Source: Candidatus Aldehydirespiratoraceae bacterium (lineage in GTDB: Bacteria; Actinomycetota; Acidimicrobiia; Acidimicrobiales; Aldehydirespiratoraceae). Taken from it: a stretch of DNA of 64,000 bases. The position numbers and the translations under genes were made by a program. Below the pieces are notes generated by a model. That model had not been told where the DNA came from. It saw only the letters and a list, made by a program, of their open reading frames with translations, and ran no database searches. The stretch lies in the NCBI GenBank assembly GCA_965198315.1, contig OZ240616.1, forward strand, positions 1,159,096-1,223,095, written 5' to 3'. How positions within the stretch are numbered: position 1 is the stretch's first letter; every line of letters begins with the position of its first letter. Shown here one piece after another: positions 1 to 61,054 of the stretch.

Positions 1-1290
1 AGAGAAGTTGGCCTCGCCGAGGCAATAGAGTCCCGGCACGGTGGTCATCAAGTTGTAGTCCACCCAGAGTCCGCCCATCGTGTAGTGGGTGGCCGGGTAG
101 ATGCGCATGGGCAACGTGTATGGGTCTTCGCCGGTGATGCGTTCATACATGTCGAAGAGGTTGCCGTATCGTTCCCGCACTGCTTCAACCCCGTCACGGG
201 CGATCGGGGCAGCGAAGTCGAGGTAGACCCCGTTCTTGAGGGGGCCGACGCCGCGGCCTCCGTCGACCACAGTCTTGGCGTTGCGGCTTGCCACATCGCG
301 GGGCACCAGGTTGCCGAACGACGGGTACTTCTCTTCCAGGTAGTAGTAGCGCTCCTGTTCAGGGATCTCAGCAGCGGAGCGGGAGTCGTCGATTTGGCGT
401 GGTACCCAGATGCGTCCGTCGTTACGCAACGACTCCGACATCAAGGTGAGCTTTGACTGGAACTCGTCGCTGACCGGGATGCAGGTCGGATGGATCTGCG
501 TGTAGCAGGGGTTGGCGAACAGCGCACCTTTGCGATGGGCCCGCCATGCCGCGGTCACGTTGCAGGCCATGGCGTTGGTCGACAGGTAGTAGACGTTGCC
601 GTAGCCACCTGTGGCCAGCACGACTGCATGGGCACTGTGGGCGTGGACCTCGCCGGTGAGCATGTCGCGGGTGATGATGCCGCATGCCTCTCCGTCTTTG
701 ACCACGACGTCGAGCATGTCGGAACGGTTGTAGAGGGTGACCTTGCCGGCTCTGATTTGAGCAGCCAGGGCTTGGTAGGCGCCGAGCAGCAGTTGCTGAC
801 CGGTTTGGCCTCGGGCATAGAACGTGCGGCTGACTTGAGCACCTCCGAACGAACGGTTGGCGAGCAGGCCGCCGTATTCTCGGGCGAAGGGCACTCCTTG
901 AGCAGCGCACTGGTCGATGATGTTGACCGAGACTTGCGCCAAGCGGTAGACGTTGGCTTCCCGCGATCGGTAGTCGCCGCCTTTGACGGTGTCATAGAAG
1001 AGGCGGTACACCGAGTCGCCGTCGTTGCGGTAGTTCTTGGCTGCGTTGATGCCGCCTTGAGCGGCGATCGAGTGGGCCCGCCGCGGCGAGTCGTGAAACG
1101 TGAATGCCTTGACGTTGTAACCGAGCTCGGCGAGCGAGGCTGCTGCAGACGCGCCGGCTAACCCGGTGCCAACGACGATGATGTCGAACTTGCGTTTGTT
1201 GGCCGGGTTGACCAGCTTCACCGAGAACTTGTGATTGTCCCACTTCTCGGCAATTGGTCCGTCGGGGACTTTGGCATCAAGTACAACCAT
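1..1290 (-). CDS. sdhA: succinate dehydrogenase/fumarate reductase flavoprotein subunit, N-terminal part (gene runs off the left window edge)
   Basis: Minus-strand frame is open from ATG 1290..1288 to position 1, so it is absent from the ORF track. My translation: [50 protein letters not shown] (FAD GxGxxG), then ...[29 protein letters not shown]...[14 protein letters not shown]...[12 protein letters not shown]. Start overlaps the sdhC stop (TGATG). Confidence 0.9.
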
Positions 1291-2426
1291 CAGGAGCCTT
1301 CTCTGCTTTCGCCGGGCGTGGCCGGAGCCGCGGTTGTGTCATCCGGTTCGGTGTCGGGCGTGGCCGGAGCCGCGCTCTGCTGGTTGCCGGGCGTGGCCGG
1401 AGCCGCGGTGGCGGTGTTGTCTGGGGTCGGAGCCGGCGCTGCGTTGTTGTTGTTGTCGGGCGTGGCCGGAGCCGCGGAACCGCGTGCTGTGTTGTCGCCG
1501 GGCGTGGCTGGAGCCGCGCTCTGCTGGTTGCCGGGCGTGGCCGGAGCCGCGGTGGCGGTGTTGTCTGGGGTCGGAGCCGGCGCCGCGGTGTTGTCGCCGG
1601 GCGTGGCCGGAGCCGCGGGGTTGTGAGATTCGGTGTTGAACTCTCCGACGGGTACCGAACGGTTGTCTTCGTTGATCAAACCCGCTTGAACGGCAATTGG
1701 GAAACTCAGGTTTCCGATCAGGATCACCGCGGCGAGGCCCCCGGCTATACCACGGCGCAGATCGTTGAACTTCGGGTTGTTGAGTCCCAGGCTCTGAAAC
1801 ATCGACCAGGTGCCGTGGAATATGTGGATCGCCAACGCAATATTGGCCACGATGTAGATGATCGCCACCGGTAGCGAACTCATCGACTCAGTCACGTTGT
1901 GGTAGATGTCGCCGCGCACGTACTCATCGCCGAGCCACCAGCCCCAAGTCAGGTCTGCGAGGTGAAACAGCAGGTAGAGCAGCACGATTGGGCCGGTCCA
2001 ACGCATCGTGCGGCTGGCGAAATCAGCGGCGATGTAGTTGCGTTTGCCAGCGTAGGCGTCATCTGCTTTGAGGCTCATGCGGCTGAGCGAGTAGGCGCTG
2101 TGGATGTGGATGGCGAACATGGCCATGAGTCCGAGGCGCATCAGCCACAACAGGAATGTGCGAGGTGCCAGATGACCGCCGAGATCACGCAGAGCTTCAC
2201 CGTATTCGTGCACCTGTACAGGGCCTTCGTAGAGGTGAAGGTTGCCGATCATGTGGACCACCACGAAACCGAGCAGACCAATGCCCGAGATCGCCATGGC
2301 GTACTTCTTGCCGATCGCAGACTGGTAGAGGCTCAGTGGCCACGGAAGCTGCCTCGGTCGCCGATGGACGGGGAGAACCTCGTGCCGCCGCTCGGAGTCA
2401 TGTTGTGGCGTGGTGGTCTGCGCCAT
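1290..2426 (-). CDS. sdhC: succinate dehydrogenase/fumarate reductase cytochrome b membrane anchor (five-helix type) with ~125-aa Pro/Ala/Thr-rich C-terminal extension
   Basis: ORF 1290..2474; I prefer ATG 2426 ([10 protein letters not shown]). Multi-TM core with His-bearing helices ([43 protein letters not shown]). Directly upstream of and 1-nt overlapping sdhA. Tail is [10 protein letters not shown]... repeats. Confidence 0.85.
1314..1617. repeat. coding tandem repeat: 19-nt core GGGCGTGGCCGGAGCCGCG x7, including a 144-bp duplication
   Basis: Core found at 1314, 1356, 1389, 1458, 1500 (1 mismatch), 1533 and 1599. The ~85-nt block starting at 1356 recurs at 1500 (offset 144 = 48 codons). 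On the minus strand it encodes the AAPATP repeats of the SdhC tail. Confidence 0.85.
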
Positions 2427-2593
2427 GAATGTTGCTTTCTGGTCGCTTAGCTTGCGAGAACGGTACCTCTCCAACCGCCCCCTGGCTACGGAGAATCCCC
2501 TGGCTTCGGAGAGCCCTTACTCCTGAGAGCCCTTACATCAGAGAGTCTGCCGACAGCTAGCGGGATACGCCAAGTGCGGGAATCTGAGCAGGT

Positions 2594-3355
2594 TCAGCTT
2601 GAGAGCACCGCGGTGACGGGCCAGTGGTCAGACCCATGACCTGCTTGGCGCACTATCTCGACCGAGTGGACCCGCCAGTGCTCCGATACGAAGATGTGGT
2701 CGATCTGGGAAGTGTGCGAGTTTCGTCCAAACCCGTGCGAGGTGGGTCCGGTCTCGGGGTTGAGCACCGGTCGCAGACCCAGCGCCAGCAGCGGCTCGAC
2801 CGGAGACTCGTCGAGGGTGCAATTGAGATCGCCCATCACGATCGCCGGCTGCCCGCGGTAGTCGGTTTGGAGCCAGCGGGCCAACTGCTCTGAGGCTTCG
2901 AGTTGTCGTTTCTCAGACCGTTCGTCGAGGTGGGTGTTGGCGAATACGAAGGGGTCACCGCCTGCGCCCAGCCGGATCTGGACCAGAGTGGCCAAGCGGG
3001 GAAACCGGGCACCGGGGAGTCGGGTGCCCGGTTGAGTAGGGGTGCCGCCGTACCAACGGGTGGTTGCGGCGGTGATCTCCAGGGCGTTGTGTCGAACCCA
3101 GACAGGGCAACTCTCGCCGCCACCCCGGCGGTTCCGACCCTGGCCCCGGTAATCCCAATCGTCTTTGAAAATGTTGGCGCTCAGCCATTGGTTCTGAGCG
3201 CGGTACACCTCCTGCAACCCCCAGATGTCGGCGTCGACTCCCTTCACCGCCTCCCCGAGTCGGTTGCGGCGCCGCCACCACCACGAACTCCGGTCCAGCG
3301 CTCGGATATTGCGGATGTTGTAGGTGGCTACCCGGATCTTGGCTGCGTCAGACAT
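2594..3355 (-). CDS. endonuclease/exonuclease/phosphatase (EEP) family protein
   Basis: ORF track 253 aa. Motifs VATYNIRN, IWGLQEV, NTHLD and C-terminal GSDHWPV are typical of the EEP fold. 8-nt overlap with the upstream gene. Confidence 0.8.
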   Translation of the reverse strand: MSDAAKIRVATYNIRNIRALDRSSWWWRRRNRLGEAVKGVDADIWGLQEVYRAQNQWLSANIFKDDWDYRGQGRNRRGGGESCPVWVRHNALEITAATTRWYGGTPTQPGTRLPGARFPRLATLVQIRLGAGGDPFVFANTHLDERSEKRQLEASEQLARWLQTDYRGQPAIVMGDLNCTLDESPVEPLLALGLRPVLNPETGPTSHGFGRNSHTSQIDHIFVSEHWRVHSVEIVRQAGHGSDHWPVTAVLSS

Positions 3356-6602: not shown

Positions 6603-8735
6603 TCAAACAGCCAGGTTGTGAACCGGGCTTCGGTAGTCGTTGGTGACACTCAACTGATCTGCAGTCAACTTGAGACTGACAACGAGTTCGTTCGCGACCC
6701 CTGGCACGATGGCCTTGACCCTGCCGATAAGCGAACAGTCGTCAGCAGGGATCGTCCCTCCCCAACTCTGCTCAGAAACGATCGCCGAGCCGCCACCAGT
6801 GATATTGGCCCGCACCGTCGCCCGCACCTGCGCCTCGGCGATAGGAGCGCGCTCGTCAGACACAACATGCACAGCCAAGTTGACCTCCTCCCCCGGCGAC
6901 AGCAGAGCGGGCAGAGGGTCTGCCACGACGATGACTGGGCGACAGGCATCGACAAGGGCCTGCCAGCCTGGCTTGGCCCGCCGCCGGCGGTCGAGAACAC
7001 CGAAACCCCCCGCGCTGGTGGCATCAGCCAAGTAGAACAGTGAGAACCCACCGGTCGGGTGGTATTTCAACCGGCGCAACAATTCGATTGAGGTCTTGAC
7101 GACTTCGGCTTGAGCGAGACCGGTGCGCGCAGCCCAGTCCGCGCCGTCACGTCCACGTTCAGGCGCTACCAGGTGCAACAGCGACTCGCTGCGGGCACCG
7201 ATCGACGCCGCGATCTGCTCCCAGTCAAGCGAAGGCCACTTAGAGTCATGGGGATCGGAATCTTGGAGATGCGGGTTTTGGGGTTCAACAGTGGCGGCTC
7301 CAAATGCGGTTACGAACCTGGCCATCCGTGGGATCCGGGCCGCGGCGGCGGCGAGATCAGATGCTCTGCCGTGGTGCCAGCCGAACCAGAGATTGCTGGT
7401 AGTGCCGTCGAAGTCGGGAAAGGTCGGCGGCACCGCGGTGTGCGCCACCACCGGACGGGAACCATCGGTGCGAGTGAGCACTCGGCGCACCGAACGGTCC
7501 AGCACGGTGCGGTTCCATGAGGGCGTCTGCTGGCCCAACAAAGGAGGTGTCGGCGCAGGTGTGTCCGGCTTCTTGAACGGTTCGTCATGGGCGCACCAAA
7601 CGGCCACCGATGGGTGGTGACCCAATAGATCAACCGCCTCTCGGGCCTGACGTGTTGCCTGGCCGCGAACGCCACGCGCCATCTGGCCTCTGAGAGGCAA
7701 GTCCTGCCACAGCAGCATGCCAATCTCGTCGGCGGTCTCGTATACCTCAGGACGGGCGATGTGGGTGATCACACGAATCATGTCGAGACCAGCACGTTTG
7801 GCTGCAAGCACGTCGTCGGCCACTTCCACGGCGCTGGCGTCGCCGGGACGAGCTGACGTCGGAAGCATGCCGATGCCCTTGACGAAGAGTCGTTCGCCAT
7901 TGACACGCAGAACCCAGTTGCGCATACGCACCGAACGAAAACCGACACGGGTCTCATGTGAATCGGAGACCTCACCGTCGACGACCACCTCGCAGCGCAG
8001 GTCATGCAGAGGCTGGTTGCCCAGCGAGTGCGGCCACCACAAGTCCGGTTCGGGCACATCGACTCTCCACTCGACCCGATTCTCACCGGCTGCGGCGGGA
8101 TGCTCCAGTTCGTGCTCTTGGCCGCAGACTGTGGTTCGCAACACGACCGGTCCAGCGACGGGGGAATCAAACACGCAGCGCATGGCGAGGGTTGCGCTGG
8201 TTTTGTCGGCGTCCAGGCATACCGTGCGGGAGAAGAGGATCGCCGTGGGGCCGGTTTCACGAATACGGACGGGCCGCCAGATGCCACCGGGGTTCTCTCC
8301 CGCGGTCCCCGAGAGTTCTGGGTCGGTGAGGGCGCCCATCAGGGATGTACGTGCAGCCGTGCCCTTGTGGGGAGCACATGTCACATCGACAGCCAGCAGG
8401 TGATCGGTGCGGTCCTCGAGGTGTCGGGTGATGTCGAAACCGTGTGAGATGAAGTAACCGTCGGTGGTGCCCACGTAGCGACCGTTGAGCCACACATCGC
8501 CTTGCTGACAGACACCGTCGAGCCACAGCCAACAGCGACGTTCAACCTCTGGTGCGTCAAGGCTGAAGCGGGTTCGATGCAGCACCGAGTGGGCCTCAGC
8601 AAACTCTGGACGGCTCGACCAATGGCCTGGAACTGTTATCTCTGACCAGGCACGATCATCGAGCTCTGGTTGATGAAACGTCCGACGCATCTCGTCGTTG
8701 GCGGTGGTGGCACGCCACAGGCCGGTCAGTTCCAT
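6603..8735 (-). CDS. glycoside hydrolase family 2 protein (beta-mannosidase/galactosidase-like)
   Basis: ORF 6603..8870. ATG 8735 (MELTGLWRA) avoids overlap with the divergent gene at 8819. GDVWLNGRYVG sugar-binding region; HHPSVAVWCAHDEP resembles the GH2 NHPS..W..NE acid/base region. Confidence 0.75.
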   Translation of the reverse strand: MELTGLWRATTANDEMRRTFHQPELDDRAWSEITVPGHWSSRPEFAEAHSVLHRTRFSLDAPEVERRCWLWLDGVCQQGDVWLNGRYVGTTDGYFISHGFDITRHLEDRTDHLLAVDVTCAPHKGTAARTSLMGALTDPELSGTAGENPGGIWRPVRIRETGPTAILFSRTVCLDADKTSATLAMRCVFDSPVAGPVVLRTTVCGQEHELEHPAAAGENRVEWRVDVPEPDLWWPHSLGNQPLHDLRCEVVVDGEVSDSHETRVGFRSVRMRNWVLRVNGERLFVKGIGMLPTSARPGDASAVEVADDVLAAKRAGLDMIRVITHIARPEVYETADEIGMLLWQDLPLRGQMARGVRGQATRQAREAVDLLGHHPSVAVWCAHDEPFKKPDTPAPTPPLLGQQTPSWNRTVLDRSVRRVLTRTDGSRPVVAHTAVPPTFPDFDGTTSNLWFGWHHGRASDLAAAAARIPRMARFVTAFGAATVEPQNPHLQDSDPHDSKWPSLDWEQIAASIGARSESLLHLVAPERGRDGADWAARTGLAQAEVVKTSIELLRRLKYHPTGGFSLFYLADATSAGGFGVLDRRRRAKPGWQALVDACRPVIVVADPLPALLSPGEEVNLAVHVVSDERAPIAEAQVRATVRANITGGGSAIVSEQSWGGTIPADDCSLIGRVKAIVPGVANELVVSLKLTADQLSVTNDYRSPVHNLAV

Positions 8736-8818
8736 CTTGTCGAGCGTACCGTTGCGCCTTCCGAGGGTCTGCTTGCGCGACTGTTTGTCTGGCTCACCGC
8801 CCGTGTATTGTCCCCGGC

Positions 8819-10231
8819 ATGTCGAGACCAGAGACCATAGGGGCGCTTCGTAAGAGCGGGTGGGAGTCAATTCCTGTCCGTCAAGAACTACGGAACAACA
8901 CCATCGAGCGCATACGCAGCGCCGAGCCGCTGTTCAACGAGGTGATCGGTTATGACAACACTGTCAACCCCCAGCTCGAAAATGCCTTGATCGCTGGTCA
9001 TGACATCATCTTTTTAGGTGAACGGGGGCAGGCCAAGACCCGCATGATTCGCGATCTCACCAACCTGCTCGATGAATGGATGCCGATTGTTGCGGGTTCG
9101 GAAATCAACGATGACCCCTACAAGCCGATCTCCCGCTACGCCCGCGACCTGATCGCAGAGCACGGCGACGACACACCGATTTCATGGGTGCACCGCGATG
9201 ATCGCTTGGGTGAGAAGCTGGCCACCCCAGACACTTCGATCGCTGATCTGATCGGCGAGGTCGACCCCATCCGGGTGGCGGAAGGCCGCTATCTCTCCGA
9301 TGAACTCACAATCCACTACGGCCTGGTGCCGCGCACCAACCGTGGCATCTTCGCTATGAACGAACTGCCCGACCTGGCGGAGCGCATTCAAGTCGGTTTG
9401 CTCAACGTGTTGGAAGAACGTGACGTGCAGATCCGCGGTCACAAGGTAAGGCTGCCGCTCGATGTCGTGCTGGTGGCGTCAGCCAATCCAGAGGATTACA
9501 CCAATCGGGGTCGGATCATCACCCCGCTCAAAGACCGTTTCGGCTCACAGATTCGCACCCATTATCCCCTCGATGTTGTCACTGAGATGGCGATTGTTGA
9601 ACAGGAGGCCGATGTCGCCTTCGCCGATGGGATTGAGGTCTCGGTCCCGTCGTATATGAGTGAGATCGTGGCGACCCTTACTCACACGGCTCGAGCCAGC
9701 CAGCACATCTCGCAACGTTCGGGTGTGTCGGTTCGTCTGTCGATTGCCAACGAGGAAATCATGGTCGCCAACGCGGTGAGACGCACCCTGCGTGCAGGCG
9801 GCAGCCATGTCGTGCCGCGAATCGTCGATCTTGAAGCGCTCCCCGCGTCGACTTCGGGAAAAGTCGAGATGGAAACTCTCGATGAGGGACGCGATGGCGA
9901 GATCCTCAACAATCTGGTGCGCTCCGCGGTGCTCACGGTGTTCAAACAGCGAGTGCCGCCAGACACGCATCTCGCGGTGGTCGAGGCGTTTGAGGGCGAC
10001 CTTGTCGTCGACACCGGTGAAGATGTCACCGACGAGGCGTACGCGGCGATGCTTGAACAGATTCCGGCTTTTATTCCTCCGGTACAGGCGCTGTTGTCTG
10101 ACGAAGATCAAGCTGAATCGCCGGCTTTGGTGGCCAGCGCGACCGAGTTGATTCTCGAAGGTCTCCACCTCATGAAACGTCTCAACAAGGACGGAGGGGG
10201 CACCAAGTCCCAGTTCCGCGGACGCAACTGA
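8819..10231 (+). CDS. ChlI/MoxR-like AAA+ ATPase (actinobacterial 'possible magnesium chelatase' type)
   Basis: ORF track 470 aa. Walker A FLGERGQAKT, Walker B region GIFAMNELPD, ASANPEDY..GRIITPLKDRF. Family normally partners with a VWA protein (see 15065..17104). Confidence 0.8.
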   Translation: MSRPETIGALRKSGWESIPVRQELRNNTIERIRSAEPLFNEVIGYDNTVNPQLENALIAGHDIIFLGERGQAKTRMIRDLTNLLDEWMPIVAGSEINDDPYKPISRYARDLIAEHGDDTPISWVHRDDRLGEKLATPDTSIADLIGEVDPIRVAEGRYLSDELTIHYGLVPRTNRGIFAMNELPDLAERIQVGLLNVLEERDVQIRGHKVRLPLDVVLVASANPEDYTNRGRIITPLKDRFGSQIRTHYPLDVVTEMAIVEQEADVAFADGIEVSVPSYMSEIVATLTHTARASQHISQRSGVSVRLSIANEEIMVANAVRRTLRAGGSHVVPRIVDLEALPASTSGKVEMETLDEGRDGEILNNLVRSAVLTVFKQRVPPDTHLAVVEAFEGDLVVDTGEDVTDEAYAAMLEQIPAFIPPVQALLSDEDQAESPALVASATELILEGLHLMKRLNKDGGGTKSQFRGRN

Positions 10232-18269: not shown

Positions 18270-19217
18270 ATGGCGTCGATCGGCATTGATCTCGGAGGTA
18301 CCAAGATCTTGGCGGTGCTCGCCAAGAATGGCGAGGTACTCGACAAACACAAGCTACCTACGCCGAGTAGGGAGGGGCCTGAGGCCATTCTCGATGCGAT
18401 GATCGTTGCTGCCCGCGAAGTCGATCCCGATGGCATCGCTTCGGGGATAGGTGTAGGGGTACCCGGTCCGGTGGTACCGGGTAGCGGGGTGCTTCCGCTC
18501 GCCTGCAATCTCTTCGGCTGGACTTCCCCTGTTGATGTAGCTGGCGAACTGTCCGCTCGATTCGACCAACGACCGGTTTTCGTCGACAACGATTGCAACG
18601 TGGCGACACTCGCCGAACACCAGTTGGGGGCGGGCCGAGGTGTAGACAACCTTGTCGGCGTGTTCATGGGCACCGGTGTTGGAGCGGGGCTGATTCTCGA
18701 CGGACGGTTGCGTCGAGGACCGCGTGGAATAGCAGGCGAAATCGGCCACACATTCGTCGATTTCTTGGCGGAGGACCGCGCAGAAGCAGACAATGAGTGC
18801 TTAGGGGAGCTTGAGGACTATGCCGGACGCTCTGCACTCGAGCGCCGCGCCCGAACTCTTGGTGCGCAAGGCGAGTCGTCGGCTCTGATTACGCTTGCCG
18901 GTGAGGGTCCCATGAAATCCAAACTTTGGAAACGCGCCCTTGACGAAGGCGATCAACTGGCGTTTCGTCTAATCGACCAAGCCGCCGAAGCACTGTCTGC
19001 AGCGTTGGCTTCAGTCATCAACTTGATCGATATTGAGCTGGTCGTACTCGGTGGTGGGATGGCCGAGAGACTTGGGTCGACGTTCCGAAATGATGTTGCC
19101 GCAAGGCTTGGGACACGTGTCTTCGCCGGGAGCGTGGCGCCGATCCGGGCTGCGTCCACTGGTGACTCCAGTGGAGCGTTGGGCGCGGCCCTACTCGTTG
19201 AGGAGGGTCAGATGTGA
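18270..19217 (+). CDS. ROK family glucokinase (possibly polyphosphate/ATP-dependent)
   Basis: ORF track 315 aa. IGIDLGGTKI, VDNDCNVATLAE, GTGVGAGLILDG, GEIGH. Stop overlaps the ppk1 start. Confidence 0.8.
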   Translation: MASIGIDLGGTKILAVLAKNGEVLDKHKLPTPSREGPEAILDAMIVAAREVDPDGIASGIGVGVPGPVVPGSGVLPLACNLFGWTSPVDVAGELSARFDQRPVFVDNDCNVATLAEHQLGAGRGVDNLVGVFMGTGVGAGLILDGRLRRGPRGIAGEIGHTFVDFLAEDRAEADNECLGELEDYAGRSALERRARTLGAQGESSALITLAGEGPMKSKLWKRALDEGDQLAFRLIDQAAEALSAALASVINLIDIELVVLGGGMAERLGSTFRNDVAARLGTRVFAGSVAPIRAASTGDSSGALGAALLVEEGQM

Positions 19218-21322
19218 GTGTTCGGGTTGGTGGCTGGGACGTTAACGACACCGCTGTGCTGAACCGCGAGCTGAGTTGGCTGGCGTTCAACGGCAGGGTC
19301 CTGGAACTTGCCGCCGACTTGAGAGTTCCGCTCCTGGAGCGGGTTCGCTACTTGTCGATTTATGCTAGCAACCTCGACGAGTTTTTTCAAGTGCGGGTGT
19401 CTGGGCTTCATGATCAGATCGCCGCGGGAATCTCCACAGTAGGTCCCGACGGCCGCACTCCTCGCAAGCAGATTGAAGACATCCGTTCGGTGGTGCTTGA
19501 ACTTGGTGCACGTCAGGAAAAGATCTTTGCCACTCAGATTCTGCCCGCTCTGAACGAGATGAATATCGAACTGCTTGAGTTCGATGATCTGACCAGCGAC
19601 GAGCGAGACATGATCGCCGAGAGGTTTCGCAGCCGCATCTTCCCGATACTCACACCGTTGGCGGTCGATCCCGGTCACCCATTCCCTTACATCTCGGATC
19701 TGTCGCTCAATCTTGCTGTTGTTGTCCGCAACCCAGCGGATCGTGAGAAACGTTTCGCGCGTGTCAAAGTCCCAAACACTCTCGAGCGGTGGATTTCGCT
19801 TGGCCAAGGCCTTCGCTTTGTCTCGCTTGAATCGGTCCTCGCCGCGCACCTCGACCAGTTGTTCCCGGGAATGGACATTGTTGAATCGGCGCCGTTTCGT
19901 GTCACCCGCAACGCCGACCTGACTCTCGGAGAAGAAGCCGAAGACCTGCTCGCGGCAGTTGAGATCGAATTGCGGCGCCGCCGCTTCGGACGCGCTGTTC
20001 GCCTTGAAGTTGCGTCATCGATGTCGCAGCAAACCCTGGAATTGTTGATCCGGGAGCTTGATCTCGAACCGGTTGATGTCTACTCGAGTTCAGTTCCTTT
20101 GGACGCGACGTCGCTGAACGCCGTGGCCGACATCGACCTTGGCCGCCAGAAGTGGCAGCATTGGCGCGGGATCACCGAGCCGGGACTCAAGTCTGAGAAC
20201 GAGCCGAGCAACTTGTTTGATGTGCTGGCCCTTCGAGATGTCCTGCTCCACCATCCGTATTCGTCGTTCAGCAGATCGGTGGTCCAGTTTGTTCGTCAAG
20301 CCAGCCGTGACAAATCGGTCCTCGCCATCAAACTCACGCTCTATCGCACATCCGGCGACAGCCCGATCATCGATGCGCTGATTGATGCGGCCGAGCGCGG
20401 CAAACAGGTGGCGGTGTTGATCGAAGTCAAAGCGAGATTCGACGAAGAGGCCAATATCGGTTGGGCTCGGCGACTCGAACAAGCGGGGGTGCATGTGGCT
20501 TACGGCATCGTGGGCCTCAAGATTCACTCGAAAATCGCCATGGTTGTGCGCGAAGAGACCGACGGCATCCGTCGCTACTGCCACATTGGCACCGGCAACT
20601 ACAACCACCGCACCGCTCGTCTCTATGAAGATTTTGGTGTGTTGACAGCCGATCCTGTGGTGGGTGATGACTTAGCTGATCTGTTCAATTACCTCACCGG
20701 CTACAGCCGAGCTCGCGACTATGAGCGCATTTTGGTGGCTCCCGAGATGCTGCGCTCACGCCTCTACGAGTTGATCGACGCTGAAATCGCCAGCGACCAA
20801 GGCCGGATGATTCTCAAGATGAACAGCCTTGTCGACACCGAGATGGTCGAAAAGCTCTACGAAGCTTCCAACGCTGGAGTTGAAATTGATTTGATTGTGC
20901 GGGGCGTTTGCTGTTTGCGTCCGGGTCTGGCGGGCTTGTCGGAGAACATTCGCGTGCGCTCGATAGTGGGTCGGTACCTCGAGCACTCGCGGATCTTTCA
21001 CTTCGCCAATGGGGGAGGTGCTAATGGGGGAGGTGCTAATGGTGGAGGTGCTAACGGCGGTGGCAAACCGCAGAGCCGTACCTACATCGGCAGCGCCGAT
21101 CTCATGCGTCGGAACCTTGATCGACGGGTCGAAGTGCTCCTCGAAATGAGCAATCCGGATCTAGAGAATCGGCTCCTTGAGGTGCTGGACGCGAACCTGG
21201 CGGATGATTGTCTGTCGTGGACACTTGATGGGTCCGGTGTCTGGACACGCCAGAACGGTACTGTCGGTGTTGATGTCCACGAAACGCTCCAAGAGCTTGC
21301 GAGGGTCCGGGCCCGTGGGTGA
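19214..21322 (+). CDS. ppk: polyphosphate kinase 1
   Basis: ORF track 702 aa. NRELSWLAFNGRVLELA, DEFFQVRV, GLKIHSKIAMVVRE, RYLEHSRIFHF, GSADLMRRNLDRRVE. Confidence 0.92.
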   Translation: MSVRVGGWDVNDTAVLNRELSWLAFNGRVLELAADLRVPLLERVRYLSIYASNLDEFFQVRVSGLHDQIAAGISTVGPDGRTPRKQIEDIRSVVLELGARQEKIFATQILPALNEMNIELLEFDDLTSDERDMIAERFRSRIFPILTPLAVDPGHPFPYISDLSLNLAVVVRNPADREKRFARVKVPNTLERWISLGQGLRFVSLESVLAAHLDQLFPGMDIVESAPFRVTRNADLTLGEEAEDLLAAVEIELRRRRFGRAVRLEVASSMSQQTLELLIRELDLEPVDVYSSSVPLDATSLNAVADIDLGRQKWQHWRGITEPGLKSENEPSNLFDVLALRDVLLHHPYSSFSRSVVQFVRQASRDKSVLAIKLTLYRTSGDSPIIDALIDAAERGKQVAVLIEVKARFDEEANIGWARRLEQAGVHVAYGIVGLKIHSKIAMVVREETDGIRRYCHIGTGNYNHRTARLYEDFGVLTADPVVGDDLADLFNYLTGYSRARDYERILVAPEMLRSRLYELIDAEIASDQGRMILKMNSLVDTEMVEKLYEASNAGVEIDLIVRGVCCLRPGLAGLSENIRVRSIVGRYLEHSRIFHFANGGGANGGGANGGGANGGGKPQSRTYIGSADLMRRNLDRRVEVLLEMSNPDLENRLLEVLDANLADDCLSWTLDGSGVWTRQNGTVGVDVHETLQELARVRARG
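21005..21064 (+). repeat. 15-bp in-frame tandem repeat x4 inside ppk1 (encodes ANGGG x4)
   Basis: GCCAATGGGGGAGGT / GCTAATGGGGGAGGT / GCTAATGGTGGAGGT / GCTAACGGCGGTGGC. Confidence 0.9.
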
Positions 21323-35726: not shown

Positions 35727-37238
35727 TCAGCCAACTCCAGGGTGCGCCGACCGCCGCCTCAGTGCTGGAGTCGGTTCACCGAACAACCCTGTCTCGCCGC
35801 TGGTCGGCTGGGTCGGGGATGTTCGGGCTGTCTTGCTCGGTCGGGGATGTTCGGTCTTGCCCGCTCGGGGATCGTCTGGACTGCGCTTGCTGCGCCGGTT
35901 TCGGTTGGGGTTTGGGGTTGCCGGGTTGACTGCGGCTGCTGTGTCGGGTGGGATGCCCGGTCTCGGTTGGGGTTGCCGGGTTGACCTCGGCTGCTGTCCG
36001 GTCTCCGGTTGCCCGGTCCCGGTTGGGGTTGCCGGGTTGACTGCGGCTGCCGGGTCGGTTGGGTTGGGGGGTTTGAGGTGGTATTTGCCGGTGTCGGGGT
36101 CTCGGTGGATTTGCCAGTGGTGGTCGTGGATTTTGTGGTGGCAGTCATCACAGACCAACACGAGGTTGTCGAGGTCGGTGGGTCCGTTCTTTGACCACCA
36201 GATGATGTGATGAGCTCGGCACCACAGCGGGTTGGCGCCACAGCCGACACAGTGTTGGTCTCGTGCGATCAACGCGACCCGTTGAGCTTCACTAGCGGTG
36301 CGTTGTTTACGCCCCAGCCACATGTCTTGGGCTTTGGTGTCAAAGATCGAAGGCAACAGGTTGGCTTCGAGTGCCAGGCGATGCAGCTCAACGACAGGTA
36401 TTGGTGAACCATCGGCCAATCGGGGATTGTCGAGTTGTTGTTTGATCACATCGAAATCGGCGATCACCAACAGATCAGTGCCCGCAGTCTTGCCGTCACC
36501 TGCGGGTTGACAGATCAGCTCGGCCAACGCGTCAGCCATCCGCTGCTGGGGTGTGGGTCGCTTGTTGGGGTCTTCGCGGTGCCACAGTTGGCGTTCTTTG
36601 GCGGTCAACGCGGTGGCGATGCGCGCCCCGGTGATCTGGTCAAACTCACCGCTCAGCACGAACATGCCCGACTCAGGTGATTCGAAGATACGGGCTTTGC
36701 GGTTGTTGCGTTGACGATCCAACAACGATTGTCCATCGTCGTCAGCCACGTCTTGTTGATGCCGTTTCACAGTCTTAGCGAATTCATCGAAAGGCTCGGT
36801 GTTGGCTGCCTCTACCAGCAGCGCTTCATCAATAGTGCTCTCACCAGACGCACGGGCGATCAACCGGGCATGTCCTTGGGGGATCTCCCCAGACTCCAAC
36901 GCCTCACTCGTCGCCGGCAGTTCCGCCAACCGAGCCGCTGTTTCGACATCACGTTTGGCTTCGCGCTTCGATGCCTTCAGTTCGTCACGAACCAGACGCT
37001 GCGCATCGCCTTTGCTGTGACGACGGCTCAGCTCGGCCAACGCCCTAGATTTCATCGCCGCCAAACGGGACTCGGCACGACCCAACACCCCCAGTCGTGA
37101 CCGCAGAGCCTCATCAGACAACCCCACCTCGTCAACGCGCCCGACACACACCGACCCGGCAGTGCCGCAACCGACACCGACAGCGGGGTCCAACAGACCA
37201 GAGGCGGGAGCTGATTCCATGAACACAACCTTAGACAC
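35727..37238 (-). CDS. HNH endonuclease, DUF222 (13E12-repeat-like) family
   Basis: ORF track 503 aa. DUF222-type N-terminal region. HNH core HCVGCGANPLWCRAHHIIWWSKNGPTDLDNLVLVCDDCHHKIH. The last ~118 codons run through DNA-level tandem repeats and may not be genuine coding sequence. Confidence 0.8.
   Translation of the reverse strand: MSKVVFMESAPASGLLDPAVGVGCGTAGSVCVGRVDEVGLSDEALRSRLGVLGRAESRLAAMKSRALAELSRRHSKGDAQRLVRDELKASKREAKRDVETAARLAELPATSEALESGEIPQGHARLIARASGESTIDEALLVEAANTEPFDEFAKTVKRHQQDVADDDGQSLLDRQRNNRKARIFESPESGMFVLSGEFDQITGARIATALTAKERQLWHREDPNKRPTPQQRMADALAELICQPAGDGKTAGTDLLVIADFDVIKQQLDNPRLADGSPIPVVELHRLALEANLLPSIFDTKAQDMWLGRKQRTASEAQRVALIARDQHCVGCGANPLWCRAHHIIWWSKNGPTDLDNLVLVCDDCHHKIHDHHWQIHRDPDTGKYHLKPPNPTDPAAAVNPATPTGTGQPETGQQPRSTRQPQPRPGIPPDTAAAVNPATPNPNRNRRSKRSPDDPRAGKTEHPRPSKTARTSPTQPTSGETGLFGEPTPALRRRSAHPGVG
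35806..36075. repeat. two adjacent tandem-repeat families (24-28-bp unit x3; 55-56-bp unit x3), G/T-rich on the plus strand
   Basis: TCGGGGAT(G/C)(T)TCGG at 35813, 35841 and 35865. GGGGTTGCCGGGTTGAC at 35914, 35969 and 36025 (spacing 55 and 56 nt, not multiples of 3). Confidence 0.85.
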
Positions 37239-56754: not shown

Positions 56755-57537
56755 TCAGCGGCCGGTGAACTCAGCTTTGCCGGGACCGTTCTGCAAGAAG
56801 CTCTGCACGCCAATGACGCAGTCTTCGGTGTCGAAGCAGTCGGCGAACAGTTCCGACTCGATCTTGACCGCTTCGTCGAGGGGAAGGTGGTAACCGCTCA
56901 GTACAGCAGCCTTGGCCTGTCGCAGTGACGCTGGACCGGCGGCATAGCCCTGGGCCATCTTGATCGCCTCTGCTTGTACAACGTCTGGTTCGAAGATCGC
57001 CGAGATCAGATTGCAGGCCAGGGCCTCTTCGGCGCCGATCGCACGGCCCGAATACACCAGATCCTTGGCCTTGGTGACGCCGGCCAACCGGGCCAGCCGT
57101 TGGGTGGCCCCACCGCCTGGGATGATCCCTAGCAGAACTTCGGGGTTCCCGAGTTGGGCGTTGCTGGCGGCCACCCGAAAGTCGGTTGCGAGGGCGAGTT
57201 CGAGTCCGCCGCCGAGTGCGAAGCCGTTGATCGCGCTGACGGTGATCTGCGGGAGTCCTTCGATGGCCAGTGCGGTGGCGTTGAACTGTTGGGAGAAGGC
57301 GAGTGCGTCGTCGCGGTCAAAGGTTGGGAACCGTTCTATGTCGGCACCCGCCGCGAAATGGCGGGGTCCACCGGTCAACACCGCCGCCCGAATCTCGCTG
57401 TCGTCGGACAGGGTGTTGCAGATGGCACTGAGTTCGTCGAGCATCGCTTCGTTGACGGCGTTCACTTTTCCACGGTCGAGGCGGATTATGGCGACCCCGG
57501 TCTCGGTGTCGCGTTCGAGTTGGACTACTGAAGACAT
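56755..57537 (-). CDS. enoyl-CoA hydratase/isomerase (crotonase) family protein
   Basis: ORF track 260 aa. KVNAVNEAML, FAAGADI, INGFALGGGLELALATD. Confidence 0.88.
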   Translation of the reverse strand: MSSVVQLERDTETGVAIIRLDRGKVNAVNEAMLDELSAICNTLSDDSEIRAAVLTGGPRHFAAGADIERFPTFDRDDALAFSQQFNATALAIEGLPQITVSAINGFALGGGLELALATDFRVAASNAQLGNPEVLLGIIPGGGATQRLARLAGVTKAKDLVYSGRAIGAEEALACNLISAIFEPDVVQAEAIKMAQGYAAGPASLRQAKAAVLSGYHLPLDEAVKIESELFADCFDTEDCVIGVQSFLQNGPGKAEFTGR

Positions 57538-57649
57538 AAACCGAAACGTTATCCGCCGATCCAGAATTCAGAGGAACGATGGGGCGTTTCGGGCGCGAAG
57601 CTGCAAGACTCCTAGCCCTGAGCTAATCGATCAGCCGCTGGGGGAATCA

Positions 57650-58666
57650 ATGTCGACGGTAACCGTGCTCATGCCGCACGAATCGATTGAAGTAGAGGGA
57701 CAATGTGTCGATGATTTGGTGCTCGTTGACCGATCATCGCTAACCGAAGTTCTCGGCTGGGAGCTGAAACCTCAAGGTCTGTGTCGAGAAAGCGAGTGCA
57801 TTCCGGTCACCGAGAGCGACCTGCTACACGCTGACTGCGTTGATCTTAGCGCCGCTGCGTCAGCCGTCGGCGTCACTTCCATGCTTGCAGACGACACCGA
57901 TCTTGTCGCTTTGAGCGTGCCGTCCCGGGCCCGCAGCGACGCGCTCACCCGACGTCGTGCCCCCAATTTTGTGCTGCCTGACCTCGACGGGGAGGATCAC
58001 TCCTTGGAGCAGTTTGAAGGCCGGAAACGGCTGTTGGTGGCTTTCGCAAGTTGGTGAGGTTGCGGATATGAACTGCCCGGGTGGCAGGCACTCAACGATG
58101 AACTGAGCGACAGTAATTTCACGGTGATCGGGGTTGCGCTCGACGAGTCAGCCGACCATGTTCGACCCTTAACCGAGGGTATTTCGTTTCCCGTGCTGCT
58201 CGATCGAGACCACGTCCTCGCCGAGCTCTACGCCGTCAGCAATGTGCCCACGGTGATTTGGATCGATGAAGACGGTGCGATTGCCCGTCCCAACTCAGCC
58301 GAGGTTGGCACCGACATGTTCCTCAAATTCACGGGTGTGCGCCCTGAACAGCACATGGACCAGGTACGGGAGTGGGTGCAGTCTGGAACGCTTCCCGCAG
58401 ACGCAGCCACGGAGATTCCTGATCTCAACGCTGAGGAGATCGAGGCTCGCCTGGCTTTTAGGATTGCTGTTCATCTGCGTCGTTTGGGTGAACCGTCAGC
58501 GGCCGATTGGTTCGCGACGGCCGTCGAACTCGCCCCTTTGGATTTCACAGTGCGCCGGGCGGCCATGCCTCTGCAAGACCTCAATCCCTTCGGGGAGCAG
58601 TTCTTCGAGTTTTTCGCTGAGTGGAACGACGCCGGCCGCCCCTACCACGGCATCCCCCGCAGCTAA
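57650..58666 (+). CDS. TlpA/ResA-like thioredoxin-fold protein with in-frame TGA (58055-58057) at the active-site Cys position; candidate selenoprotein (alternatively a nonsense pseudogene)
   Basis: ATG 57650 follows GGGGGAA. Track ORFs 56960..58057 and 58124..58666 share one frame, with 22 sense codons between the TGA and GTG 58124. Read-through junction: [28 protein letters not shown]...[11 protein letters not shown]...NVPTVIWIDEDG. Confidence 0.6.
58073..58087 (+). promoter_or_regulatory. SECIS-like hairpin downstream of the in-frame TGA
   Basis: CTGCC-CGGGT-GGCAG. The stem starts 15 nt after the TGA. The loop (20 nt after the TGA) contains GGU. A possible 2-bp extension (G70-C89, T69-A90) lies across an internal loop. 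Confidence 0.3.
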
Positions 58667-58737: not shown

Positions 58738-60252
58738 CTAGAGGCTGAAGGTTCCAGAGGTGACTTCGATTGGCTGACCGACGCATTCGACCTCCGTGCA
58801 GGCGCGCATGAGACTTGGGTCGGTGCTTGTGGCCCAGGTCCGGGTGCCGTTGGCGAAGCGAACCAGGCCGATGGCTCGCAGTGGGCCTTGGCGGTCGTAG
58901 GTGACTGTCACTCCGTCGAGTGTTGCCACGCCGCTTGTGTCCGGGTCGGCGGCTTGCCGGATAGGCGCATTGTGTTCGATGGTCTTGGTTTGGTGGGGTT
59001 GGTCTGGTGGCGTCGTCGAGTAGGTGGCGAGCGCGTGTTTGGATACGTGGCCTCCGTTTCCCTGAACAAAGCCCACAGATCCGGGCTCAGCGCGGAGTCG
59101 ACGGACCATGCCGATGACGCTCTCACCTGCGGCGAAGTTGAGCGGAGCGCCCGCAAAGGCCAGCCCTCCGGTCACCGTGAGCGCGCGATCAGTGCTGATT
59201 CCCAGAACTTCAGTGGTGAGCGCCACCATCGAGGGGAAGCACGAGTAGAGGTCAAGGTGCTCAACCTCGTCGAGGTCGCCGATCGTCGTCTGTAGCGCTT
59301 CCCCCGCGGCAGCAAGGCCCGGGGCGGTAGGTACTTCATATCGGCCGATAAGGCTGGCGGTGTCGCTCGATAGCACACACTGCTGCGGGTACACCCGTTG
59401 ATCGATGCTGACGCCCAGCCGGTCTGCGGCTTCGACGCTGGCGATCACGATGGCGCCGCCGTGATCGACGTTGTTGTTGGCGCACATCGCCTTCGTGTAA
59501 GGCCAGCTCACGAAGCGGTTGTTGTTGCTGGCCCCGCGAATCTGCGCCGCGGTCATGCCTTGGCGATCAGCTGCGTATGGATTGTCGACGGCGGTTGCCG
59601 CGTAACCGGCCCAGAGCGAAGCAGATCGCTCTCTGGACTCTTGGAGGGTCTCGCCTCGACGGTGGCGCAGGGCGCTGTCAAAGACCGCGTAACTGTTGCG
59701 GGGCATCTCTGCGCCCCTTTCGATGGCGGCGGCGTCGCCCATGTCGAGCGGAGGCCCAAAGTTCTCCACCGTGCTCGTGTCGGTTTCTTCACGGCGTGCA
59801 ATTTTGATCCCGAGCTTCCTTTGCGCCCGTCGCGACAGGTTGTTCTCCCCGCAGGTCATCACTGCGATTTCAATTTCTCCAGCGCAAATCCGATCGGCTA
59901 GCGCGCCAAGCAGATGAATCGGCATCTGCCCACCGAACGAAGAATGAATGGTTCGTGAAAGTGTGATCCCACACTCGTGCGCGACCAAAGCAGCCGGGTC
60001 TCGGTGGCGCCACAATCCGCCGACCACAGCCATCGTGTCGACCGCTGAGCGCCAATCGCCGGTCCCACAGTCAGCCAAAGCAATCTCAACAGCTTCTGCC
60101 ATCAACGTCACCGAGTCTGCCGCTTCGGCGATCTCATTGTCGGCGGCAAGAAATCGGGCTATCTGTCCAACCCCAACAATGACAGGCGTACGAGGGTCTA
60201 CTTTCACACGGCAATTATTACCAGCACCCGGCTCGGAGATAGCGTTGGGCAT
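58738..60252 (-). CDS. thiolase-like (SCP-x/acetyl-CoA acetyltransferase family) protein with C-terminal extension
   Basis: ORF 58738..60537. Plausible starts are ATG 60252 (MPNAISEP) or GTG 60207 (VKVDPRTPVIVGVGQ). Thiolase-like core (VIVGVGQIA, AVMTCGENN, LDLYSCFP, GGLAFAGAP). Confidence 0.75.
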   Translation of the reverse strand: MPNAISEPGAGNNCRVKVDPRTPVIVGVGQIARFLAADNEIAEAADSVTLMAEAVEIALADCGTGDWRSAVDTMAVVGGLWRHRDPAALVAHECGITLSRTIHSSFGGQMPIHLLGALADRICAGEIEIAVMTCGENNLSRRAQRKLGIKIARREETDTSTVENFGPPLDMGDAAAIERGAEMPRNSYAVFDSALRHRRGETLQESRERSASLWAGYAATAVDNPYAADRQGMTAAQIRGASNNNRFVSWPYTKAMCANNNVDHGGAIVIASVEAADRLGVSIDQRVYPQQCVLSSDTASLIGRYEVPTAPGLAAAGEALQTTIGDLDEVEHLDLYSCFPSMVALTTEVLGISTDRALTVTGGLAFAGAPLNFAAGESVIGMVRRLRAEPGSVGFVQGNGGHVSKHALATYSTTPPDQPHQTKTIEHNAPIRQAADPDTSGVATLDGVTVTYDRQGPLRAIGLVRFANGTRTWATSTDPSLMRACTEVECVGQPIEVTSGTFSL

Positions 60253-61054
60253 GGCTGTTAACCCACAGAGTATTCTGTTGACTGATCGAGTGGCGGTGGT
60301 GACTGGTGCCGGACAAGGCATCGGAGAAGCCACGGCGCTGGCGCTGGCACGCTTTGGCGCCGATGTTGCTGTCTGCGACATGCACGGCGACAGGTTGCCG
60401 TCGGTGAAGGCCGCTATTGAACAAACGGGTCGACGCTGCCACGCGACCGAACTCGACGTACGTGACGCCGACGGTGTTGACCGATGGCTCGGCAATGTCG
60501 TCGAAGAACTCGGCTTAATCGATGTGTTGGTCAACAACGCCGGGGGAGGGTTTCATTCGCTGTATTCGGGGGTGTCGCCCAAAGGTGAAGGTGTGTTGAT
60601 AGCGGAGAACTTCTCTACTGTCAGCAACTGTGTGCGCTACGGAGTTGATCGCATGAACGATGGCGCTTCGATAATCAACGTGACCTCCGTCGAGGCATAT
60701 CACGCCGCTCCTGGTTTCGCGGTCTATGCGGCGATGAAGGCTGCTGTAGAGCAGTTCACTCAGTCGCTCGCCCTCGAATTGGGTGGCCGCGGCATTCGGG
60801 TCAACTGCATCGCGCCAGACATGACCCCGACTCCTGGCGACCGGAGTCTGTCTGAGGCTAGTAGCGCCAAGATCGACGGAATGGCACCGACTCCGCTGCG
60901 TCGCATGGGATCGACCGACGAGAACGCCGCGGTGGTTGTCTTCCTGGCTTCCGACATGGCGAGTTTCGTTACGGGATCGTCGATTCCTGTAGATGGCGGC
61001 ACTATCGCTGCGGCCGCCTGGAAAGTTAGGGACAATGGCACCTTCGCCATGTGA
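60251..61054 (+). CDS. SDR family oxidoreductase (FabG-like)
   Basis: ORF 59948..61054. ATG 60251 gives MAVNPQSILLTDRVAVVTGAGQGIG. NNAGG. YAAMKAAV (YxxxK). Confidence 0.85.
   Translation: MAVNPQSILLTDRVAVVTGAGQGIGEATALALARFGADVAVCDMHGDRLPSVKAAIEQTGRRCHATELDVRDADGVDRWLGNVVEELGLIDVLVNNAGGGFHSLYSGVSPKGEGVLIAENFSTVSNCVRYGVDRMNDGASIINVTSVEAYHAAPGFAVYAAMKAAVEQFTQSLALELGGRGIRVNCIAPDMTPTPGDRSLSEASSAKIDGMAPTPLRRMGSTDENAAVVVFLASDMASFVTGSSIPVDGGTIAAAAWKVRDNGTFAM

Follow-up and report, generated by a model that had tools for sequence, protein, structure and literature searches.

A candidate selenoprotein gene for a TlpA/ResA-like redoxin with a U-G-C motif in Candidatus Aldehydirespiratoraceae

In a 64,000-nucleotide stretch of DNA from a Candidatus Aldehydirespiratoraceae bacterium, the whole of which is referred to here as the window, two open reading frames (56960..58057 and 58124..58666) follow one another in the same frame. 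The first ends in a TGA codon, and the 22 codons between this TGA and the GTG at 58124 include no stop. Both frames and the stop-free interval were described in the original prediction, and we found them as described. Is this TGA the end of a protein, or a codon for selenocysteine (Sec) within one longer redoxin gene, as had been proposed?

Reading frame and conservation across the UGA codon

The features on which the reading of this locus depends are as follows.

57650..58666, + strand: complete candidate selenoprotein gene, with one UGA (Sec136), a TAA stop at 58664-58666 and collinear full-length homologues
57640..57645, + strand: Shine-Dalgarno-like GGGGGA, 4 nt 5' of ATG 57650, read off the sequence and of putative function
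58055..58057, + strand: UGA codon, candidate Sec (U136), with TGA in 96/136 and a Cys codon in 40/136 genes; matches the first Cys of WCxxC in ResA/TlpA by alignment
58061..58063, + strand: Cys138 (TGC), an invariant Cys in all homologues, two residues past the Sec/Cys column and probably the resolving Cys

Positions 57650-58666 translate on the forward strand as a single frame of 338 codons with one internal stop, the TGA at 58055-58057. ATG 57650 had been suggested as the true start, and this choice agrees with the GGGGGA ahead of it and with relatives that open with the identical peptide MSTVTVL.... The portion of the first open reading frame lying 5' of this ATG overlaps a gene that runs the other way, for enoyl-CoA hydratase (56755-57537, Pfam ECH_1 at syntenic loci), again as proposed. 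Likewise, GTG 58124 is sited within a beta-strand, judging from the AlphaFold2 (AF2) model of a homologue, and lacks a Shine-Dalgarno-like sequence. A promoter and terminator scan gave nothing informative. When the window was scanned for in-frame TGA codons with coding potential on both sides, no other convincing Sec case was found.

The homologue set draws on 52 species-representative genomes, from Acidimicrobiia, Dehalococcoidia and other groups, together with 80 metagenome contigs; protein identity to the window protein in the genome scan ranged from 99% down to about 40%. Among 136 homologous genes, the column of the TGA holds TGA in 96, TGC in 35 and TGT in five, and thus only Cys codons or TGA. 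In ResA/TlpA this column corresponds to the nucleophilic Cys, the N-terminal one of the motif, consistent with the earlier placement of the TGA at the attacking-Cys site. Conservation runs unbroken across the TGA, and the 22 codons that a stop at the TGA would leave untranslated are likewise conserved as protein. Both flanks are under purifying selection, dN/dS being 0.09-0.44 on the 5' side of the TGA and 0.04-0.22 on its 3' side, with dS extending up to saturation. Signs of pseudogene decay, extra stops or frameshifts, are absent from the relatives with the sole exception of a contig assembled from long reads at 6x (L002). The start codons picked by gene callers for the downstream fragment are differing, non-homologous codons among relatives. 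Within the window, UGA terminates 26 of the 43 tallied open reading frames of at least 150 aa and is therefore not reassigned. Every refuting check named in the original prediction that was run favours selenocysteine, which UGA 58055 almost certainly encodes.

A candidate SECIS hairpin in the UGA-containing genes

A hairpin that might direct Sec insertion had been pointed out, CTGCC-CGGGT-GGCAG at 58073-58087, starting 15 nt past the TGA, and it is present at these positions.

58073..58087, + strand: candidate bacterial SECIS core, with a 5-bp stem (58073-58077/58083-58087) and a 5-nt loop CGGGU (58078-58082); encodes L-P-G-W-Q

Taken by itself, this hairpin is not beyond chance. Its stability shows no excess over shuffled sequence (z = 0.49), and 29 of 100 shuffles yield a match within two mismatches. 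RNAalifold recovers the exact stem from the alignment, yet all five stem pairs are invariant and so offer no compensatory covariation, which counts against Sec decoding. Given a lone folding test without signal and the lack of covariation, the evidence for the hairpin lies in the contrast between Sec and Cys genes at synonymous sites. The peptide L-P-x-W-Q, which is conserved in the Cys forms too, fixes much of the stem, and the RNA-level signal is thus confined to a few synonymous positions.

At these positions the two groups of genes differ clearly. The 15-nt hairpin (+19 to +33) occurs in 96/96 TGA genes, as CTGCCCGGGTGGCAG in 80 and as CTGCCGGTCTGGCAG in 16. The LPGWQ peptide is encoded by 38 of the 40 Cys genes, and the same stretch exists there in 19 nucleotide versions, two genes matching the Sec form. 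The stem is intact in all 96 Sec genes vs 16/40 Cys genes, of which only two have a Sec-type loop. Codons +6, +9 and +10 of the Sec forms have a third-position entropy of 0; in the Cys forms the values are 1.39, 1.24 and 1.71 at +6, +7 and +8. Synonymous sites within the hairpin are without variation in TGA genes only, while in the codons that flank the hairpin in these same Sec genes third positions vary freely. Such invariance confined to TGA-bearing genes shows constraint at the RNA level, as would be expected of the proposed element, and the hairpin is highly non-random once homologous sequences are compared. The window contains only one occurrence of the SECIS 15-mer.

We also compared the hairpin with a published model of bacterial SECIS elements (bSECIS; PMC13188914, Fig. 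2 legend). The model has an apical loop 3-9 nt long on an upper stem of 4-16 bp, places this loop 16-37 nt from the UGA and sets a minimum free energy of at most -7.5 kcal/mol. The first or second nucleotide of the loop, or both, should be G, and the next is usually G or U. The 5-nt loop and 5-bp stem are within these ranges, and both loop versions, C-G-G-G-U in the window and G-G-U-C-U, follow the rule for G positions. The spacing had been estimated at about 20 nt; we measured 20 nt (58055-58057 to 58078), inside the range of the model. Folding energies are borderline relative to -7.5 kcal/mol: the 15-mer alone has -6.0, short flanks bring it to -7.6, the alignment consensus gives -7.5, and a 61-nt stretch gives -13.1. 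Compared with the E. coli fdhF-type SECIS and the bSECIS consensus, only the 5-bp stem is conserved here; the lower stem and bulged U are not. The loop of fdhF is GGUC, which the GGUCU variant resembles.

Domain architecture and relation to known families

The translated product can be divided into three domains. For structural comparisons, the AF2 model of a Cys homologue with 53% identity, predicted with high confidence, stood in for the window protein.

57650..57946, + strand: N-terminal beta-rich domain, residues 1 to about 99, with Cys45 (57782-57784) and Cys50 (57797-57799) in the motif G-L-C-R-x-x-x-C
57947..58324, + strand: TlpA/ResA-like thioredoxin-fold domain, residues about 100-225, with the cis-Pro motif N-V-P-T (Pro200, 58247-58249)
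58325..58663, + strand: C-terminal all-helical domain, residues about 226-338, with conserved T-V-R-R-A-A-M-P-L...D-P-F-G...E-W...G-x-P-Y-H-G

The central domain has a thioredoxin fold with the insertion typical of TlpA. It matches Pfam AhpC-TSA (PF00578) at 62.2 bits against a cutoff of 26, and Redoxin at 51 bits; PDB profile matches to ResA/TlpA have E values of 1e-17 to 1e-13, and Foldseek aligns the model to ResA with probability 1.0, target TM 0.75 and rmsd 1.7-1.9. The N-V-P-T motif is conserved among homologues. The TlpA/ResA layout that had been predicted thus stands for the fold and the cis-Pro; the CxxC part does not, as the motif is C-x-C (U-G-C) with one residue deleted. In the N-terminal domain, modelled at pLDDT 90.7, all of 41 sequences share G43, L44, C45 and C50. 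Neither this domain nor the C-terminal one belongs to a Pfam family, and a Foldseek search of the N-terminal domain against the PDB gave insignificant matches (best E 0.34, to usher N-domains and 2Fe-2S ferredoxin-like folds). The C-terminal domain is helical at 226-332 in the homologue model and is partly covered by the NCBIfam model NF041054. The existence of two extra domains had been foreseen and is borne out by this model, although the C-terminal one is about 113 aa long and not ~150 aa. A simple hydropathy test shows no hydrophobic segment in the protein, whose N-terminus is MSTVTVLMPHESIEVEGQ, and the highest 19-residue Kyte-Doolittle mean is 1.22, in agreement with the predicted lack of a membrane segment.

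ResA, TlpA, StoA and CcmG (PDB 1st9, 1su9, 1jfu, 3kcm) share this fold (Foldseek probability 1.0, target TM about 0.75), including a W-C...C...P active-site region and the cis-Pro loop. However, these are single-domain, membrane-anchored or secreted proteins with two Cys in CxxC, while the window protein has no hydrophobic segment, two added domains and Sec in place of the first Cys. In HMM alignments to 3kcm and 4nmu, the W-[C/U]-G-C of the window family differs from W-C-x-x-C by a one-residue deletion. A peroxiredoxin (AhpC/TSA) was considered as well. The context L-L-V-A-F-A-S-W-U lacks a Pro at -7 as well as a Thr/Ser at -3, and this reading was rejected because the PxxxTxxC motif is absent; PrxQ/BCP models score far under their cutoffs.

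The gene belongs to an already catalogued family. A UGC-containing TlpA-like or Prx-like (UGC) selenoprotein family has been catalogued since 2008, and the window protein has what defines it, a pfam00578/TlpA-like domain with Sec in U-G-C. Compared by described motif, domain and counts only, the published family (exemplar MDE0950781.1) and the present one have in common an AhpC-TSA/TlpA-like thioredoxin fold, a single Sec in U-G-C, Cys homologues and an origin in environmental bacteria; the close relatives of the window gene in GenBank carry no selenoprotein annotation. The original prediction also mentioned a family named after a WAxxUGC motif. This family is real: it is NF041054, "ResA-like WAxxUGC motif-containing protein", and is the best match. 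A full-text literature search for "WAxxUGC" returned no paper. NF041054 (an equivalog model of 354 positions) is the top-scoring family, with E 7e-57, similar length and a shared A-x-x-U-G-C core, and the alignment takes in the N-terminal domain and thioredoxin fold, at profile positions 8-204, and one further stretch. The score of 193.4 bits (U entered as C) is nevertheless under the cutoff of 300 bits, and the first W of W-A-x-x-U-G-C is F in the F-A-S-W-U-G-C of the window protein; in other clades the motif is W-A/S-S-W-U-G-C. Seven relatives from other clades also score under 300 (212-275 bits), so the seed clade of NF041054 is a different branch.

Decoding of the UGA and significance of the family

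Following the established bacterial pathway, a ribosome arriving at the UGA would encounter the hairpin at 58073-58087 bound to SelB carrying Sec-tRNA(Sec). SelB would then deliver selenocysteine, and termination by release factor 2 would thereby be replaced. In the finished protein Sec136 would substitute for the attacking Cys of the thioredoxin-fold active site and form with Cys138 a U-G-C centre of the CxC type, one residue shorter than CxxC. This centre may cycle between a selenol/thiol and a selenenylsulfide while reducing a disulfide or other oxidised substrate, and the invariant Cys45/Cys50 pair may provide a further redox centre or serve as an internal relay.

Neither the 64-kb window nor 682 kb of related loci showed any of the genes for this pathway (selA, selB, selD, tRNA-Sec), which counts against the proposal. 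For the window, this result comes from ARAGORN and Rfam, searches for three sequence motifs, and Pfam scans that covered ten open reading frames. At gathering threshold Rfam gave zero matches in the whole window, to tRNA-Sec or to any other family, and ARAGORN found no tRNA-Sec in the window and the first 57 loci. Motifs of SelD, SelA and SelB were not found in six frames of 138 sequences (682 kb), and sel genes were absent from the Pfam scans of ten larger window open reading frames. Sec machinery has been reported in Actinomarinales, another order of the same class (bioRxiv 10.64898/2026.04.03.716425). SelA and SelB co-occur in the majority of the sponge-symbiont bins of one study (PMC5649159), in a bin set that includes Acidimicrobiia, the statement not being specific to them.

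How far do other explanations account for these observations? One is that the UGA is read through by a near-cognate tRNA inserting Trp, Cys or Gly, with the hairpin as a generic stimulator, or that UGA is reassigned. That no sel genes were seen in the window and the related loci would fit this, as would a hairpin that is short and gives no covariation. But UGA ends most of the larger open reading frames tallied in the window, the column alternates with Cys codons only, which is the classic Sec/Cys pattern, the loop G, stem length and spacing are of the bacterial SECIS type, and the UGC/TlpA-like family is already classed among selenoproteins. We consider such readthrough very unlikely. It is also highly improbable that the TGA is a true stop, either in a pseudogene or between a 135-aa N-terminal protein and a product of about 180 aa starting at GTG 58124, even though this matches the gene callers and GenBank annotation (e.g. 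MDE0699586.1, 197 aa). A stop would have had to persist in 96 independent sequences, at identities as low as about 40% and with dS at saturation, while dN/dS stayed well below 1 on either side of it and the 22 intervening codons remained conserved as protein. Such a split cuts the thioredoxin fold at its active site, and it relies on a GTG inside a beta-strand without a Shine-Dalgarno-like sequence and on restart codons that relatives do not conserve. Partial termination at a Sec UGA is normal, and a 135-aa by-product probably exists.

An error of sequencing or assembly that turned TGC or TGT into this TGA has a negligible probability. Nothing specific favours it apart from the frameshift errors that contig L002 has elsewhere, and it is refuted by the comparative data, in which the same TGA recurs in 96 sequences from independent projects and technologies. 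We conclude that the locus is very probably a single gene whose 338-residue product is a soluble cytoplasmic redoxin of three domains, with UGA 58055 decoded as Sec.

A bolder interpretation is that the product, instead of being a TlpA-type disulfide reductase, is a distinct selenoenzyme of the cytoplasm. The features of the product are an N-domain without a PDB fold match that carries the invariant CxxxxC, the native U-G-C centre and the helical C-domain. On this view the 15-nt SECIS, invariant from Actinomycetota to Chloroflexota and embedded in the conserved LPGWQ, would be a SelB-binding element of unusually minimal size that is used across phyla. We regard this interpretation as doubtful. 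As Cys forms keep LPGWQ, the Sec form could be ancestral.

The finding adds no new kind of system. It does show that public annotation splits or truncates this gene in the Aldehydirespiratoraceae/Acidimicrobiales lineage; GenBank lists close relatives as fragments of 197 aa named "TlpA disulfide reductase family protein", whose start is a CTG within the SECIS. As the gene also scores under the NCBIfam cutoff, its Sec status is missed. The two exact 15-mers are a simple diagnostic for recovering family members, and the family, with its native U-G-C centre, offers a clean natural Sec/Cys pair in which to study selenenylsulfide chemistry of the CxC type. Selenocysteine in this redoxin would imply selenium use by widespread marine and sponge-associated Acidimicrobiia.

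Reading frame and conservation of the TGA codon

The ORFs 56960..58057 and 58124..58666 share a common reading frame, and translation of 57650-58666 yields 338 sense codons, a single internal TGA (58055-58057) and a TAA at the end, in agreement with the original prediction of one frame interrupted by a TGA. On the opposite strand, an enoyl-CoA hydratase gene (56755-57537; Pfam ECH_1 as scored in syntenic loci) overlaps the first ORF along its long stretch upstream of ATG 57650. This overlap and the N-terminal peptide MSTVTVL..., common to all close relatives, bear out the proposed start at ATG 57650, with the upstream part antisense to echA. Two short elements of the locus, the second found where it had been predicted, are:

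57640-57645, + strand: GGGGGA, preceding ATG 57650
58073-58087, + strand: hairpin CTGCC-CGGGT-GGCAG, read from the sequence

The gene stands alone, with the enoyl-CoA hydratase gene diverging from it on one side and a thiolase-like gene converging on it on the other, so that its neighbours offer no hint of the substrate. For the thiolase-like (TLP1_add_C) protein, the mechanical ORF of 599 aa at 58738-60537 (-) exceeds the 497-aa gene call in the syntenic locus L001 by ~100 codons; it probably runs too far, over the start of a short-chain dehydrogenase gene that synteny places at ~60.3-61.1 kb (+).

A protein search returned many full-length homologues (~345 aa, at most 55% identity) with W-C-G-C at the junction, while every relative at 66-99% identity was represented only by a C-terminal piece (187-197 aa). 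In the DNA retrieved for five of these, the in-frame TGA is present and the upstream part intact. Codon 136, the column proposed for comparison among orthologues, reads TGA in 96, TGC in 35 and TGT in 5 of 136 motif-containing genes, drawn from the window, five fragment loci, 52 species-representative genome loci (one genome scan) and 80 metagenome contig loci (one contig scan). TGA forms occur in Acidimicrobiia, Dehalococcoidia and other MAGs; the proteins of those from the genome scan are between 99% and ~40% identical to that of the window.

Conservation also continues across the TGA, the other comparison suggested by the original prediction. Pairing the window gene with each of ten relatives that carry TGA gives dN/dS of 0.09-0.44 for the part upstream of the codon and 0.04-0.22 for the part downstream, with dS up to saturation, indicating purifying selection through the junction. 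Neither a pseudogene nor a sequencing error can give a conserved TGA column with low dN/dS on both sides. TGA is also the commonest ordinary stop in the window, where it ends 26 of the 43 ORFs tallied (each at least 150 aa), so UGA has not been reassigned genome-wide. Another reading takes the TGA as a true stop, with a downstream restart and two separate proteins. This would sever the thioredoxin fold at its active site and requires a restart, yet none is conserved, gene callers picking CTG, ATG or TTG at differing places.

Several of the homologous loci have features of their own. Two Dehalococcoidia MAG loci, L051 (TGA at 3331 and 4477) and L055 (TGA at 2203 and 3400), each carry two tandem paralogues of the window gene, with an in-frame TGA and a GGUCU-loop hairpin in both copies. 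L047 (CAMBEL010000076.1) comes from a MAG labelled 'Bifidobacterium breve' and has an Acidimicrobiia-type copy of the gene, with TGA; this contig is probably mis-binned or wrongly labelled. L002, a contig from long reads at 6x coverage, shares 92% identity with the window; its copy of the gene (9111-10172) is frameshifted close to the 3' end and its enoyl-CoA hydratase gene (8216-8997) is split, both likely through assembly errors rather than biology.

The hairpin downstream of the TGA

The published model of bacterial SECIS elements allows loops of 3-9 nt, stems of 4-16 bp and a UGA-to-loop distance of 16-37 nt, asks for a G at one of the two leading loop positions with G or U after it, and sets an energy limit of -7.5 kcal/mol (PMC13188914). 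Folded and scored against this model, the predicted SECIS-like hairpin agrees with it in loop, stem, G position and spacing (20 nt), and its free energy of -6.0 to -7.6 kcal/mol is borderline. By itself the hairpin does not stand out, with a z-score of 0.49 against dinucleotide shuffles.

Positions +19 to +33 are one of two 15-mers in all 96 TGA (Sec) genes, CTGCCCGGGTGGCAG in 80 and CTGCCGGTCTGGCAG in 16. The 40 genes with TGC or TGT (Cys genes) encode the peptide LPGWQ in 38 cases but use 19 nucleotide versions of this stretch; only two of the 40 genes are identical to the Sec version and only 16 retain the stem. Third-position entropy in Sec genes is zero at the hairpin Leu, Trp and Gln codons, the Pro and Gly/Val codons are limited to two coupled states, and the flanking codons vary freely (0.8-1.9 bits). 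The corresponding values in Cys genes are 1.39 bits for Leu, 1.24 for Pro and 1.71 for Gly. RNAalifold (84 sequences) recovered exactly a 5-bp stem and a 5-nt loop with nothing further conserved, and found no covariation in the stem because every pair is invariant. Judged from this comparison of sequences, the hairpin is a selected RNA element, constrained only when UGA is present. Two Cys-form (TGC) genes, L082 (1906) and L087 (1912), carry the exact first 15-mer and may be recent Sec-to-Cys conversions.

Fold and active site

Pfam matches to the window protein (AhpC-TSA and Redoxin) are confined to residues 102-212, and the family profile matches ResA, TlpA, StoA and related thioredoxin-fold structures in the PDB (E 1e-17 to 1e-11). 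The profile alignment sets W-C-G-.-C-R-Y-D-L-P opposite W-C-P-p-C-R-E-E-I-P, the family being without one CxxC residue. The TGA therefore falls at the N-terminal nucleophilic Cys, the attacking position originally predicted, and the centre is U-G-C. The motif PxxxTxxC is absent, and a peroxiredoxin was rejected. A confident AlphaFold2 model (pLDDT 95.4, pTM 0.92) of P0004, a 53%-identical Cys homologue, has three packed domains and contains both of the extra domains expected around the redoxin:

residues ~1-100: N-terminal beta-rich domain
residues ~100-225: thioredoxin fold
residues ~226-335: C-terminal helical domain

Foldseek matched the central domain alone, to ResA (probability 1.0, target TM ~0.75). 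For the N-terminal domain, a model built on the window's own sequence (pLDDT 90.7) had no significant fold match in the PDB (best E 0.34); the domain's motif G-L-C-R-x-x-x-C, with Cys45 and Cys50, is invariant. No hydrophobic segment was found in the window protein, so that, as anticipated and unlike TlpA/ResA, a cytoplasmic location is most likely.

Probable selenocysteine decoding and family membership

The conserved in-frame TGA is a real finding, and its interpretation as a selenocysteine codon is supported by conservation of the UGA where the catalytic Cys belongs, UGA-dependent hairpin constraint, purifying selection through the junction and a ResA-like fold. By analogy with the established bacterial pathway, the hairpin would bind SelB·GTP·Sec-tRNA(Sec), and this complex would decode UGA in competition with RF2. 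Sec136 would then attack the substrate and Cys138 would resolve the intermediate as a selenenylsulfide, while the Cys45/Cys50 pair may relay electrons. A shortened product of 135 aa is likely to arise as well, as Sec insertion never reaches full efficiency.

No tRNA-Sec or sel genes were found in 682 kb of related loci or in the 64-kb window, the latter searched with ARAGORN, Rfam and three motifs and, for ten of its ORFs, with Pfam. ARAGORN also called an 89-nt tRNA-Thr(GGT) at 37121-37209 (-), inside a DUF222/HNH endonuclease ORF (35727-37238, -); this stretch has no Rfam tRNA match at the gathering threshold, and the call is probably a false positive. Elsewhere, the last ~110 residues of ORF 1290-2474 (-) form a repetitive tail rich in Pro, Thr and Ala (1293-1622, -), and a short tandem pentapeptide repeat, (GGGAN)x3 then GGG (21011-21055, +), lies within ORF 19214-21322, which we take, reading by eye, to be polyphosphate-kinase-like.

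The window has 60.7% G+C. Over 7 kb its DNA matches OZ240617.1 at 96.6% identity; this record is the 3.75-Mb chromosome of a MAG named 'Candidatus Aldehydirespiratoraceae bacterium' (Acidimicrobiales). This family, earlier given the placeholder name UBA11606, includes sponge symbionts and free-living marine lineages (PMC11706023). Two studies lend indirect support to Sec machinery in such organisms. All complete genomes of Actinomarinales, also of the class Acidimicrobiia, encode selA, selC, selD and a divergent selB (bioRxiv 10.64898/2026.04.03.716425). In a study of sponge symbionts, most bins have SelA together with SelB; Acidimicrobiia are among the bins of that study, though its statement is not specific to them (PMC5649159).

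The 'WAxxUGC' family named in the original prediction exists as NCBIfam NF041054 ('ResA-like WAxxUGC motif-containing protein', 354 positions). It is the best family match of the window protein, which however reaches 193 bits where the cutoff is 300. Scores of seven relatives in other clades lie at 212-275 bits, and the clade of NF041054 itself is therefore a different branch. The motif of the window protein is F-A-S-W-U-G-C, whereas other clades have W-A/S-S-W-U-G-C. The term 'WAxxUGC' occurred in no paper of the literature searched. The family is listed twice in published work, once as 'Prx-like (UGC-containing)' (pfam00578, motif UGC), with 46 Sec sequences in Global Ocean Sampling data (PMC2398784). 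GenBank entries for close relatives are only 197-aa 'TlpA disulfide reductase family protein' fragments, such as MDE0699586.1 and MXW60651.1, which cluster together with MYA74808.1, MXW76100.1 and others. In the one locus examined, the called start of MDE0699586.1 (L001 10001-10594) is the CTG that opens the SECIS hairpin, and the 136 aa before it are annotated on their own, as a hypothetical ORF. The window gene is a new member, at present mis-annotated, of a selenoprotein family already known, to which this analysis adds an exact two-variant 15-nt SECIS with Sec-specific synonymous constraint, the CxC-type nature of the centre and a three-domain model.
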